Shown here: in pieces, positions 1,334 to 38,663 of the stretch
Layout: each line of letters starts with the position of its first letter
Position numbering within the stretch: position 1 is the stretch's first letter
Assembly (NCBI GenBank): GCA_946186215.1
Contig: CAMHMM010000001.1
Span: forward strand, 1 to 40,597
DNA from: an uncultured Ruminococcus sp.
GTDB lineage: Bacteria; Bacillota; Clostridia; Oscillospirales; Ruminococcaceae
Direction of reading: 5' to 3'
Length of the DNA stretch: 40,597 nt
Notes under the pieces: model-generated
Told to the model about the DNA's origin: nothing
The model's input: only the letters and a program-made list of their open reading frames with translations
The model's database searches: none
Program-made: the position numbers and the translations under genes

Positions 1334-1430
1334 GCGGGCGGGCAGAGCCCGCACCCACCCGGGCGGCAAGGACGACAGCTAACCGTACTTTCATTTGTGA
1401 GTAACTCTAACTTGCGGCTCGGAACTCTGA
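1334..1430. repeat. REP-like array, family 1 (hairpin units plus linker), directly after the carboxypeptidase stop
   Basis: GCGGGC-AGA-GCCCGC-ACCC hairpin, partial CGGCAAGGACGACAGCTA unit and linker CTTTCATTTGTGAGTAAC...GCTCGGAACT, matching other intergenic copies. Confidence 0.85.
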
Positions 1431-1467
1431 TCTCTGCTTTGGACAGCAGGCAAAACCATACACAAAA

Positions 1468-1515
1468 GCCTCCCTCTGGGAGGGAGATGCCGAGCGCAGT
1501 GAGGCGGAGGGGTTC
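1468..1515. repeat. Palindromic repeat family 2, copy 1
   Basis: GCCTCCCTCTGGGAGGGAGATGCCGAGCGCAGTGAGGCGGAGGGGTTC; related copies at 12399-12441, 21503-21557 (rc), 33131-33180 (rc), partial 37963-37988. Confidence 0.8.
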
Positions 1516-1630
1516 GTCACGGACAAGGCAGGCTGTTTTGGGTAAGTTACCTCAGTTAGCAATATAAAAATATATAACACACAAATCCTTTGGCATACAC
1601 CACACATCAAAACGATCGGAGGCAGCAGCA

Positions 1631-2071
1631 ATGATATATATAGGCAGCGACCATGCGGGCTATGAGCTCAAAAACGAGGTGATAAAGCATCTTGAGGAGC
1701 TCGGTCTCGAGTACCGCAATTTTGGTTCGGTTAACGGCGAATCCGTTGATTATCCCGATGTTGCGGAGGAAGTCTGCACAGCCCTTCTTGCAGGAAATGA
1801 AGGCGACAAGGCTATCCTCGTCTGCGGCACGGGCATCGGCATCTCCATCGCCGCAAACAAGATAAAGGGTATCCGTGCGGCTCTGTGTACCGACTGCTAC
1901 ACAGCAAAATACACCCGCTACCACAACAACGCAAACACTCTTTGCATGGGCGGAAGAGTTATCGGCGCAGGTCTTGCCTGCGAGATAGTTGATGCATTCC
2001 TCGGAGCAAAGTTCGAGGGCGGCAGGCATCAGCGCAGAGTTGACAAGATCACAGCACTTGAAAATAGGTGA
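1631..2071 (+). CDS. rpiB: Ribose-5-phosphate isomerase B
   Basis: GSDHAG, VDYPD, CGTGIG, HNNAN, GGRHQRR motifs; rpiB-upp order typical of Clostridia. Confidence 0.96.
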
Positions 2072-2075
2072 TAAT

Positions 2076-2702
2076 ATGAATGTAACGATTATAGACCATC
2101 CCCTGGTGCAGCATAAGCTCACCCTTCTCAGGGATTCAAACACAGGCTCAAAGGAATTCCGCGAGCTCGTAAGCGAGACTTCCATGCTGATGTGCTATGA
2201 AGCTATGAGAGATCTCCCCACCAAGACAATTGAGGTACACACACCGCTCGGCATCGCCAATTCAAAGGTGATATCCGGCAAGAAGCTGGTATTTGTGCCT
2301 ATCCTGCGCTCAGGTCTGGGTATGACCAACGGCGTTATGGGGCTTATCCCCGCTGCCAAGATCGGCCATATCGGCACCTTCCGCGATCCCGAAACATCGG
2401 GCGCAGTAGAGTATTACTGCAAGCTCCCCGCAGATACCGGAGTGCGCACGGCGATCATCGCCGATGTTATGATGGCAACAGGCTTTACCGCCTGCGAAGC
2501 TATCAGACTCGTTAAGGAAACAGGCTGCAAGGAGATCAAGTTCATGTGCCTTATCGCCCACCCGAGAGGGATAGAGCTTGTAAACAAGACACATCCCGAT
2601 GTGCAGATCTACTGTGCGGCAGTAGATACCGAGCTCAGCGATGATCTTTTCATCGTTCCCGGTCTCGGCGATGCGGGAAACAGGATGTTCGGGACAAAAT
2701 GA
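2076..2702 (+). CDS. upp: Uracil phosphoribosyltransferase (divergent motifs)
   Basis: Starts [15 protein letters not shown] after [23 protein letters not shown]-terminal FGTK. Start moved from 1989 to 2076. Confidence 0.9.
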
Positions 2703-2766
2703 TCATACATCTTGTCTTACCGGCGATCAGGCAAAGAAAGTATAAGGTTTAAGGAGTTTTACACCA

Positions 2767-35940: not shown

Positions 35941-36175
35941 TAAATAAATTCAATAAAAAGCATATTATTTTGTTGTAAATATTATGTGAAATGCCTTTAA
36001 ATCGCCATAATCGGGAATTTACAGCCGTTATGAAATGAAGTATGGCATTGATAGAAATTGCAATTGATTCAAAGCTTTGCTTTAAGGAAAGCAGCGGCAT
36101 CCGCCGCCTTGAAGACAGCAGATATTTTTATAAAGATGAGTAATTGTGATGGGTGATAAGGTCAAGACTTATAAT

Positions 36176-36213
36176 AAAAAACGCAGATGGCTCAGATGTC
36201 ATCTGCGTTTTTT
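36176..36213 (-). terminator. Rho-independent terminator after the MBL-fold gene
   Basis: AAAAAACGCAGATGGC-TCAGAT-GTCATCTGCGTTTTTT. Confidence 0.85.
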
Positions 36214-37022
36214 CATACTAATTTTTCACCGCTGTGCAGGGATCTGAGCTTATCGCCCATGATTTCCTTCATCATCTCAAATGCCGGGATACCTGTGCAG
36301 TGTCCGCTGTAGAAAACGGTATTCATCTGTGAAAGCTCCCGGGCTGTCTGAATAATGACGGATTTTTCCTCATCGGTGTGTTCGCCATCACGCTTCATCA
36401 TGTGAAATCCGCTTATCACATAGTCGGGAACGCTTCCGAAAAGTTCTCTGTATCTGTCAAGGATATTGAGAATACCGTTATGAGCGCAGCCCGATAAAAG
36501 CCAGCGTATGCCGTTCTGTGTTATGACAAGGCATTGTTCATGTACAAAATCGTCTTCGGCTTTTTCTCCGTCCTTCAGACAGGAAAGCTTTCTGTTGCCC
36601 TGCGGATAGCACCGCCTGCCTGTGATACCGCTGAACAGAAACAGTTCATCATCAAGCTGTATATTACCGTCGATCAGACGGATATTCGGTAATTTAAGGA
36701 TATCCGTATCTATGCCGATATAGCGTTCACCGTTAAAATGCGGTTCGGCGGCTGTTCTCTGCATGATTATCTGTGCTGTGTGGTTGAGCTCTGAAAAGGG
36801 CAGAATACCGCCTGAATGGTCATAATGGCCGTGGCTGAGGATAACAGTATCAACAGCGGTAAGGTCAATGCCGAGCGTTTCAGCGTTTGTGACAACTGCA
36901 TCAGTCTGTCCAGTATCAAGCAGAAGCCTGTGCTTTTCTGTCTCGATATATACCGAGAGACCGTGCTCGGCAATACAGCTTTCGCTCCCGACAGTATTTT
37001 CTACAAGTGTTATGATCTTCAT
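36213..37022 (-). CDS. MBL-fold metallo-hydrolase
   Basis: AEHGLS, LLDTG, LSHGHYDHSGG, GCAHNG, GFH, HCTG. Confidence 0.93.
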   Translation of the reverse strand: MKIITLVENTVGSESCIAEHGLSVYIETEKHRLLLDTGQTDAVVTNAETLGIDLTAVDTVILSHGHYDHSGGILPFSELNHTAQIIMQRTAAEPHFNGERYIGIDTDILKLPNIRLIDGNIQLDDELFLFSGITGRRCYPQGNRKLSCLKDGEKAEDDFVHEQCLVITQNGIRWLLSGCAHNGILNILDRYRELFGSVPDYVISGFHMMKRDGEHTDEEKSVIIQTARELSQMNTVFYSGHCTGIPAFEMMKEIMGDKLRSLHSGEKLV

Positions 37023-37738
37023 TCGTGTTTACCGCAGCAATGATCTCCGCAGAAATGCTCTTCACCATGTTCATGATCATGATGATCACAGGTAGGATCA
37101 TCATTCTGTACAAGTGTATCTGCAAGGAAGGATGTAACTGCATCATCAGCATATCCGGTATTTCCGCCGTAAAGAGCAATACCTGCTTCCTGCATTGCCA
37201 TCTGAGCACCTCCGCCGATACCGCCGCAGATCAGCACATCTACCTGAGCACTCCTCAGAAATCCGGCAAGAGCACCATGTCCTGCGCCGTTAGTGCCAAC
37301 TACCTGTTCGTTTATGATCTTACCGTCAGTGATATCATAGAGCTTGAATTGTTCTGTCCTTCCAAAGTGCTGGAATATTTGTCCGTTTTCATAGGTTACT
37401 GCTATTCTCATGATCGTATTTCCTTTCCGGATTATTTCTTCCGAGATATTATTGTCGAGTGTATAATTTCCGCCTGAGATCACTATGCGCTTTCCTTCCA
37501 CCAGAGCTGCTGCCAGCTTTTTTCGTGCGCTTTCATATATCGCCGTAACGGTAGTCCTTGCGACATTCATTTCAGCAGCGCATTGTTCCTGAGTTTTTCC
37601 CTGATAGTCTATCAGCCGTATAGTTTCAAACTCGTCAAGTGACATTGTGACTGTATCGTTTGCAATATCCTGATCGGGGGCAAAGCTCCAGTAATCGGGA
37701 TAACAGCATATACGGCGCGTTTTCTGAGGTCTGGGCAT
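37019..37738 (-). CDS. DUF134 HTH domain fused to a NifB/NifX-family cofactor-binding domain, His/Cys tail
   Basis: MPRPQKTRR...EFETIRLID..G.TQEQCAAEMNVARTT...ARKKLA.ALVEGK, then MRIAV...HFGRT...ICGGIGGGA and CDHHDHEHG...CGDHCCG; start 37738 after AAAGGAG. Confidence 0.92.
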   Translation of the reverse strand: MPRPQKTRRICCYPDYWSFAPDQDIANDTVTMSLDEFETIRLIDYQGKTQEQCAAEMNVARTTVTAIYESARKKLAAALVEGKRIVISGGNYTLDNNISEEIIRKGNTIMRIAVTYENGQIFQHFGRTEQFKLYDITDGKIINEQVVGTNGAGHGALAGFLRSAQVDVLICGGIGGGAQMAMQEAGIALYGGNTGYADDAVTSFLADTLVQNDDPTCDHHDHEHGEEHFCGDHCCGKHE

Positions 37739-37754
37739 AGAACCATCTCCTTTA

Positions 37755-37795
37755 CGACTTATGTCAATTATATCAGATAATATGACATATGTCAA
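37755..37795 (-). promoter_or_regulatory. Consensus promoter with two palindromic operator-like sites
   Basis: TTGACA (37795-37790)-17 nt-TATAAT (37772-37767), extended TGn; TGACATATGTCA at 37783-37794 and CGACTTATGTCA at 37755-37766. Confidence 0.85.
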
Positions 37796-37826
37796 GTATA
37801 GATTTTGCTGCACCACTGCCTGAGAG

Positions 37827-38663
37827 CGGGCAGGCAGAGCCTGCACCCTCCCGGCAGGGAAACGCCGCTGTTACCCGTGCGCTATTTTGCAGGGGAACGC
37901 TCATTTGTGGCTCGGAACCGTAATTGATGCACTGTTTTAGGCGTGACCACGCTAATAAGGACTTGCCGAGAGAAGCGAGGCGGTGGGGTTTACAAACTAA
38001 AGTTCCGGGCTTCAAATGAGAGTTACCATTCAAATGAGAGCGCGGGAAACAGCGGGTTTTACCCGCCGAACGGTAGCCTATTGTCTTAAATTGTATATTT
38101 GCAGCGAGTCAAAGGGGATGAAACACCAGAGGGACGGAGCATCAATTTGAAATGACGACATTATCTGTGCGCCGTCCCTCTTCGTTTCTCCCCTTTGTAT
38201 CCCCTTTTCCCCACTCTTTTGTTATTTTGCTTCCCGTTTGGACACCGTTTATAACCCACTCAGGATTATCAGCACAATAAATTTTACATTCGCTCAGATA
38301 GGTTCTGTGTGGACAGTTGCCGATAAATGCCTGCTTTCTGTTTTGTTTGTCTCGCCCTGTCATTTGGTAAGTCACCTGCTCTCAGGTTTATAAACCTCTC
38401 CTATAAATTTGTGCTGTCAGCCTTGCCGTTATCATATAATAATAGTAGATATAAAAGTTCCGAGCTACAAATGAGAGACTTCGTACAAAAGAGAGTACGG
38501 GTAGGTGTTGGCCTTGCCGACCGGGTAACAGCGGGTTTTACCCGCCGGGTGGGTGCAGGCTCTGTCTGTTTTCTAACTCGCTTTATGTGGAAATAAGAGT
38601 TCCGGGCTGCAAATGAGAGTTACCATTCAAATGAAAGCGCGGGAGGGTGCAGGCACTGCCTGC
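37827..38663. repeat. Family-1 composite array with inverted halves
   Basis: Hairpins and linker at 37827-37920 in one orientation; linkers near 38000, 38453, 38595 and a three-hairpin run at 38498-38569 in the other. Confidence 0.9.
38042..38400. repeat. ~358-nt conserved structured element, copy B
   Basis: Colinear with 28304-28661; identical blocks 38108-38144 and 38166-38232. Confidence 0.9.

Follow-up and report, generated by a model that had tools for sequence, protein, structure and literature searches.

A polar, REP/BIME-like hairpin repeat abutting stop codons and predicted promoters in a Ruminococcaceae-type genus

Introduction

Several described repeat systems resemble the one reported here. 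The bacterial interspersed mosaic elements (BIMEs) of E. coli known as BIME-2 and atypical BIMEs, and the REPINs of Pseudomonas (doublets of repetitive extragenic palindromes, REPs, forming hairpins), show mosaic arrays, several REP types, linkers, tandem amplification and strain-variable copy number (PMC3333891, PMC3116915). Published BIME models already include excision, strand transfer and local amplification (PMC3333891). REPs that lie near stop codons, or supply the stop, have been described, and REPs occur mainly between convergent and unidirectional genes (PMC3733652), while their spread is still regarded as an open question (PMC8266576). An earlier note on a 40,597-nt stretch of an uncultured Ruminococcus sp. 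(contig CAMHMM010000001.1 of assembly GCA_946186215.1, hereafter the window), made from its letters alone, described three interchangeable triloop hairpins and a linker shuffled at seven loci and took them for a REP/BIME-like system. Here we followed this repeat through the window, its genome and related genomes. The element is directional, ~70-120 nt long, and consists of a fixed-length leader followed by one to four head-to-tail triloop hairpins. A polarity of the repeat is well supported by our analyses: its hairpin end sits at the next functional boundary, i.e., a stop codon or a predicted promoter, and its leader end rarely does.

Results

The genome of the window (G000; the window is its contig C1) is a 2.28-Mb assembly of 365 contigs, 81.6% complete, the smallest contig being 2.5 kb with nothing shorter present, and the assembly breaks at repeat elements. 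Hairpin units were called by weight matrices and leaders by a leader hidden Markov model (HMM); locally shuffled DNA, used as a control, gave 0 units and 0 leaders. In G000, 469 distinct units (type A, 153; type B, 170; type C, 146) and 339 leaders were found, forming 408 elements, which fall into 186 clusters spread over 120 contigs, so the units counted genome-wide are not confined to the window, which holds 24 units and 16 leaders making up 16 elements. The repeat is extragenic, since only 4/408 elements lay inside open reading frames (ORFs) of at least 600 nt and some of those ORFs were doubtful. Sixty-five of the 408 were within 300 nt of a contig end, which accounts in part for the fragmented state of such assemblies. 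Read mapping was too thin (shares 0.06-0.11, contigs only) and showed neither expression nor circles.

The commonest elements in G000 comprise one leader and one hairpin (leader-B, 85; leader-A, 72; leader-C, 62), to which extra hairpins are added in 24-nt steps. All modules, the leader included, start with CGRG on the top strand, and the leader start, CGRGC, lies 37-39 nt ahead of the unit CGRG in 279 of 290 scored copies. Perfect hairpins with a 6-bp stem and a 3-nt loop occurred 260 times genome-wide at offset 9 after CGGG and 4-9 times at each of seven other offsets. The linker that had been reported to recur about 15 times corresponds to the 16 leaders of the window; it is not freely shuffled, however, but is fixed 5' of the units (leader followed by unit 300 times, unit followed by leader 11 times). 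On its own the leader showed no fold, and a conserved leader structure was unsupported. In G000 the purine of the leader CGRGC matches the last leader base (A/A in 207 and G/G in 53 of 279), which could come from two purines mismatched within a short stem or just from the existence of two subfamilies.

The stems and coordinates given in the earlier note were all present, including CGGGT at 38498, 38522 and 38546 with its 24-nt step. Its description of the hairpins as interchangeable was correct, since the type of unit did not depend on the subtype of leader (P = 0.76) and, among 51 pairs of near-identical leaders from different loci, 23 bear different units. Its count of seven loci holds if 28079-28328/28691-28787 and 37830-38066/38447-38663 are split, and there is a degenerate copy at 33183-33207. 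A uniform GTRN head, in contrast, was not found: the heads of the 469 units included GTAA (156), GTAG (80), GAGG (55), GCAG (48) and GTGG (48), and GT(A/G)G was present in 128 (27%). Type C units of other carriers were largely GTGG, but the scan pattern itself required GTGG. Pairing was kept in 397-452 of the 469 units per stem pair. The covariation claimed for the stems exists mostly between unit types (stem pairs 2, 3, 5, and 6); inside types, uncompensated changes outnumbered compensated ones (87 vs. 14 in type A; 60 vs. 4 in type C), and the pair GCGGTG/CGCCGC at 28773 involves a G-T wobble rather than true compensation. In some carriers (L048, L068, L098, L361), the leader is followed by a fourth type of hairpin, whose loop has 4 nt and which also abuts stop codons.

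The 84 directly adjacent unit pairs of G000 were head-to-tail, and just four joined units of the same type (33% expected); C-C pairs were present in other carriers. Among 222 pairs of neighboring elements, 179 were in tandem, 37 were back-to-back at 3-263 nt without fixed spacing, and six faced each other at 336-396 nt, the length of a 345-bp repeat module described below.

Consensus -35/-10 matches and stop codons were scored at both ends of the element in G000. An outward -35/-10 consensus started less than 20 nt past the outermost hairpin end in 69 of 216 cases (41 within 10 nt), compared with 0/132 leader ends and 23/1368 random points in element-free gaps under the same rule (Fisher's test, P = 5e-17 vs. 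leader ends and 1e-44 vs. random intergenic points). A facing stop lay within -14 to +17 nt of 33/58 hairpin ends vs. 3/45 leader ends. In other carriers, 24 of 40 stop-facing ends fell within -9 to +17, and 11 stop-facing ends lay at exactly -9, where the gene runs into the hairpin, ends in Ala-Gly and is stopped by a TGA in the loop. Divergent gaps of G000 were occupied in 41 of 155 cases, tandem gaps in 66 of 748 and convergent gaps in 11 of 173.

Comparison of orthologous intergenic regions, which the earlier note had proposed, yielded filled and empty alleles at five sites. At all five, host bases were gone on the hairpin side and the terminator was retained on the leader side, and at three the native stop was lost. 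In the gap between idh and rex, six genomes are empty, with the stop and a terminator within 95-110 nt; in three filled genomes the hairpin is joined to the last sense codon and the native stop is absent, the terminator being seen on the leader side in two of them, and one further genome carries a leader stub only, with the stop intact. A 19.9-kb stretch of genome G004, compared with five relatives, contained the four further sites with empty alleles; the fifth difference seen there involved a separate repeat family. One of these four elements abuts the stop at 1 nt, one comes with the loss of five codons and the stop, one supplies Ala-Gly-TGA for the stop, and one abuts the stop. A further multicopy palindromic insertion of 270-400 nt was seen in G004 and G010 (L361, ~17770-18050; L374; L379) and was missing from four orthologous gaps.

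Loss of host DNA was also evident within G000. In gene 10732-11949, one host residue separates the last conserved strand from the element-derived Ala-Gly, compared with 3-16 residues in 22 scored orthologs. In tandem gaps, the median length of unique host DNA upstream of the -35 box was 62 with an element (n = 25) vs. 123.5 (n = 102; P = 4.5e-5). Across orthologous loci that are ~97% identical, unit number, unit type and array length vary while the outermost hairpin junction is mostly constant.

The junctions themselves carried a base bias. The base following the final C of an intact hairpin, at 186 non-repeat junctions, was C in 99, T in 46, A in 37 and G in 4, and G counts at positions +2 to +8 were 26-61. 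Among non-C junction bases G made up 4/87, where 16% or 25% would be expected near promoters or stops. TnpA(REP), the transposase of REPs, makes its break between a C and a T (PMC3479197); CT, CA and, given a GTGG guide, CC are all dinucleotides that it can cut (PMC8266576), and the near exclusion of G after the hairpin is what cuts of this type predict. Partial arms following a hairpin have a constant 3' end and variable starts; what they retain is the end at the hairpin foot and not the one with CGRG. Of the CTTGC-type continuations, about half belong instead to a second, GC-rich palindromic repeat family, which starts there.

In high copy numbers, the leader-hairpin family occurs in a single Ruminococcaceae-type genus only. 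Pattern matches per genome among 30 genomes of the genus were 244 (G000), 64, 27, 27, 26, 15, 13, 12, and 8, with 1-2 in nine genomes and 0 in twelve. More than three matches were found in three of 401 genomes of the family, all genus members, and, with the G000-type pattern, in G000 alone among 401 genomes of the order. Relatives retain both CGRG motifs and their spacing, with a different leader middle. Named records bearing the unit are titled Huintestinicola sp., Oscillospiraceae, Ruminococcaceae, Ruminococcus or Clostridia. Viral contigs gave 0 matches in four scans and one chance match, on a GC-rich contig, in a fifth; nothing meaningful matched among plasmids and phages. In a metagenome scan whose pattern was too loose, 18 of at least 121 loci passed a perfect-stem and GC filter and, among the matches listed, inspection by eye found no adjacent transposase-like ORF at these 18 loci.

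Features of the window

The elements and repeat modules of the window are as follows.
1338..1432, minus strand: leader-A-C element; hairpin end 4 nt from the stop of the convergent gene 2-1333 (VanY/Big_2)
11941..12014, minus strand: leader-C element; overlaps the end of gene 10732-11949 (CNNM/CBS/CorC), its hairpin supplying the last two codons (Ala-Gly) and the TGA stop
12048..12219, minus strand: two more leader-C copies of the same tandem array as 11941..12014, period ~98-107 nt
12253..12373, minus strand: leader-A-B-C element
21456..21492, minus strand: leader with a decayed unit, back-to-back with the next element
21505..21560, strand unassigned: second GC-rich palindromic repeat family
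21599..21783, plus strand: leader-C and leader-A-C elements; last hairpin 9 nt from the gyrB stop, the two being separated by a partial arm
28079..28259, minus strand: leader-B and leader-C-A elements in the dnaA-dnaN interval; hairpin end abuts a TTTTCAACA-type repeat stretch, probably oriC boxes
28262..28328, plus strand: leader-B element; hairpin end abuts the 345-bp module
28331..28678, strand unassigned: third repeat module, ~345 bp, with a long hairpin; first window copy
28691..28787, plus strand: leader-A-B element; hairpin end 5 nt from the dnaA stop
33183..33207, minus strand: degenerate type C unit beside the second repeat family
37830..37924, minus strand: leader-B-C element; a 12/12 match to a sigma70-type promoter starts 34 nt past the hairpin end
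37993..38066, plus strand: leader-B element, back-to-back with 37830..37924
38067..38415, strand unassigned: 345-bp module, second window copy
38447..38663, plus strand: leader-A-B-C element (units at 38498, 38522, and 38546) and leader-C element (unit at 38640)

The genes of the window include dnaA, dnaN, a RecF-type gene, gyrB and gyrA. Motifs of the type TTTTCAACA are repeated at 24800-24847, 27772-27942 and 28060-28090, around dnaN-dnaA and recF, and are probably DnaA-box variants of oriC. The ORF at 30637-32142 contains Ala/Glu/Lys-rich coding repeats at 31726-31941. Related AT-rich stretches with CATCGGTTAAA-like cores occur at 38664-38760 and 34190-34310, and also between back-to-back elements on contigs C3, C5, and C11; they are possibly an alternative-sigma type of promoter.

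Two other repeats accompany the elements. The 345-bp module is non-coding, has a long invariant hairpin and gave 24 matches in G000 that were 76-89% identical pairwise. Genome G042 held three partial matches (including G042:C347:4191-4377, L273) with no leader-hairpin element adjoining, and the 28 other genus genomes held none. We considered the module as a remnant of a REP-associated tyrosine transposase (RAYT) gene and rejected this, as it has stops in all six consensus frames and no clear codon periodicity. The second GC-rich palindromic family (21505-21560, 1467-1510, and 12398-12441) had 51 of 52 copies of one core within 150 nt of an element, mostly on its leader side.

Discussion

The most informative feature of this repeat, missed by the earlier note, is that host DNA has been lost from one side only, as far as the promoters and stops. 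We interpret the family as a directional repeat that abuts or replaces stops and predicted promoters and is likely non-autonomous, cut on one strand and rejoined by a TnpA(REP)/RAYT-like HUH transposase; our rough probability for this reading is 0.55. Its anatomy, copy number, polarity, junction base bias and loss of host bases and stops compared with empty alleles are observed; the class of enzyme, a stepwise progress and a role for selection we infer. The enzyme would recognize the CGRG-purine head and hairpin and break the strand at the C of the hairpin foot. Joining of the broken end upstream would duplicate a unit, a partial arm or a whole leader-plus-unit block, giving arrays and mosaics, and joining it downstream would delete host DNA. 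Repeated rounds could advance the hairpin end until the next step would harm a -35 box, ribosome-binding site or reading frame, and selection would retain alleles halted at such a boundary or using the in-frame TGA of the loop. Excised pieces may found new loci.

Several observations weigh against this reading. No RAYT was found in G000, either by a Y1_Tnp search or by tblastn and HMM searches built from RAYTs of the same order (best E 3.4), nor, in a RAYT alignment search run without a positive control, in 10 further carriers, of which two reach 100% completeness by markers; thus the Y1_Tnp/RAYT gene flanked by units that the earlier note had suggested looking for was not recovered. Units were present at 0/26 Y1 loci. 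The commonest head, GTAA, has another base where the guide would need a G to pair with the C. On the host side no preceding-C rule was seen: at site 1, and also at idh if the C is not counted as shared, the joined base is preceded by an A, and one junction (L334) joins C to G. Promoter abutment by the same strict rule was rare in other carriers (2/60), and the promoters are predicted, being consensus -35/-10 matches only. Replication-strand bias was none by fourfold keto skew (186 vs. 194) and 202 vs. 115 by contig GC skew. The loss of host DNA had the same direction in divergent and convergent gaps and was not significant (P = 0.32 and 0.12, respectively), the empty alleles come from other species and not from direct ancestors, and related genomes are non-independent.

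Alternatively, the repeat could be a REP-like selfish element mobilized by an enzyme that is not a recognizable RAYT, IS200 or IS91 transposase and that ratchets one way through host spacer to the -35 box, ribosome-binding site or reading frame. We hold this only tentatively, as clearly less probable than a TnpA(REP)/RAYT-like enzyme; if true, such a ratchet would rewrite promoter upstream regions and protein C-termini, with Ala-Gly added, across a genus. Our searches for other enzymes gave no shared candidate. IS200-type genes of relatives had no units beside them, a DUF559 gene was missing from G000, and a GIY-YIG search returned one 619-aa frame with no link to the repeat. Among five carriers, reverse transcriptase was found in none, TnpB exceeded the cut-off in one and relaxase occurred in one, neither being common to carriers, while tyrosine recombinases were present in all five and not tied to the repeat. 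Clustering of the ORFs beside 76 loci revealed no shared nuclease-like family. A family of GTAG-headed palindromes, resembling those beside RAYTs of the same order, also occurs in carriers without a RAYT match; this, together with the breaks and absent short contigs of G000, limits the negative RAYT result. An inverted pair of GTAG-headed palindromes (L041:2598-2664, L086, L326, L327, L330), in genomes that gave no RAYT match, has the form typical of RAYT-associated repeats.

The lack of a candidate enzyme common to carriers would also fit a mobilizer that is long gone, with mosaics, partial arms and one-sided deletions arising from host recombination and hairpin-driven template switching. Leaders are diverged (median identity 63%), several junctions share a 1-nt C, and some sites are old, as indicated by the site downstream of the VanY/Big_2 gene, which is filled in both G000 and G022. 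However, the hairpin forms on both strands, so slippage alone should not be one-sided, and G is excluded at the junction. Moreover, identical units recur up to 37 times and genomes of the genus hold between 0 and 244 copies, so dispersal in trans is needed. We regard a lost mobilizer as unlikely.

A shade less probable, in our estimate, are two further explanations that we rate alike. In the first, of the IS91 or rolling-circle type, the bottom strand is active, the module reads as a hairpin followed 5 nt on by CYCG, and a Y2 HUH enzyme makes one-ended junctions. The terIS of IS91 has one palindrome beside a 5'-CTCG cleavage site, a bottom-strand substrate and no target duplication (PMC13181058); the top-strand CGRG opening every module, the leader included, agrees with this, as does the absence of a fixed base on the host side of junctions. 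Against it, Y2_Tnp was present in 2/301 family genomes and in none of G000, G004, and G022, the GTTC/CTTG targets are missing at host junctions, and truncated arms keep the wrong end, that of the hairpin foot and not CGRG. In two family genomes (L245, L246), IS91-type Y2 genes lie directly downstream of tyrosine-recombinase-like frames. In the second, elements are placed at stop codons or -35 boxes in one step, with a small target deletion and without erosion. The five sites with empty alleles lose no more than ~25 nt and keep most of the host gap on the leader side, in favor of such targeting. Against it, stops, -35 boxes, start regions and ends of the 345-bp module would all need to be recognized under a single rule, host DNA upstream of the -35 box is halved in tandem gaps, and the junctions at one site differ between two genomes (L074 vs. 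L249). Finally, a regulatory role kept by selection (as an RNA 3'-end hairpin, a terminator, or an insulator upstream of promoters), with position reflecting function, would fit the maintained stem pairing and the occupancy of divergent, tandem and convergent gaps, but is very improbable given that the leader has no fold of its own, that native terminators persist beside the element, that 21/30 genus genomes have 0-2 matches, and that no Rfam family applies (0 matches in the window; best E 0.046 in 37800-38700, far below the gathering score).

The inverted doublets of known systems conceal which end is cut. Since this family is asymmetric, its junctions record the fixed end and the bases flanking the break, at close to 200 sites of a single genome and with empty alleles in close relatives. 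This record gives in vivo support to excision and strand-transfer models, and it points to a consequence for which we found no description: host spacer is lost on one side, upstream of promoters and after stops, and proteins gain new C-termini. Should the mobilizer prove not to be a RAYT, it would be a new enzyme rearranging single-stranded DNA. The literature that we searched (full texts, with few subscription papers and without supplements) held no account of the repeat family or of one-sided erosion up to promoters; the REP lists in the supplements of PMC3733652 and PMC6006769 could bear on novelty.

Among the closest known systems are the GTAG-family REPs (TnpA(REP)/RAYT), especially the short ones of group 3 / subclass 2.5. 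The repeat shares with them a short, perfectly paired stem-loop whose foot lies 2 nt from a purine-rich tetranucleotide, hundreds of extragenic copies, restriction to a genus and a junction C followed by C, T, or A. Its foot plus stem of 12 nt falls within the 10-13 nt of subclass 2.5 REPs (PMC6006769). Unlike them, it has GT(A/G)G in 27% of units, a fixed 38-nt leader with its own CGRG and no cognate RAYT that we could find, and unlike described REPs it is enriched between divergent genes in G000. The mosaic tandem arrays, whose size differs between near-identical orthologous loci, recall BIMEs and REPINs; the basic unit of both, however, is an inverted REP-iREP doublet, whereas here units are head-to-tail without fixed inverted doublets. 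As in the terIS of IS91, a palindrome lies beside CYCG (bottom strand, at 5 nt from the stem) and target duplication is absent, but the three carriers searched have no Y2 gene, no end is oriIS-like, and the five sites with empty alleles share no tetranucleotide. In insertion sequences (IS) of the IS200/IS605 type, tnpA lies between two hairpin ends, whereas IS200-type genes of relatives are devoid of units. Miniature inverted-repeat transposable elements have terminal inverted repeats and target-site duplications; the present element is asymmetric and its filled alleles lose host bases. Adjacent deletions mediated by IS also keep one element end fixed (PMC11708052), but these were described for autonomous IS and not for a 70-120-nt non-coding repeat with ends piled genome-wide at gene and promoter boundaries. 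The REP/BIME-like assignment of the earlier note therefore stands in part: the repeat is dispersed, extragenic and mosaic, with a junction bias that fits TnpA(REP), but since its guide tetranucleotide is inconsistent, fixed inverted doublets are lacking and no cognate gene was found, we do not file it as a REP/BIME member. It is best described as REP/BIME-like, a polar variant and not a proven member.

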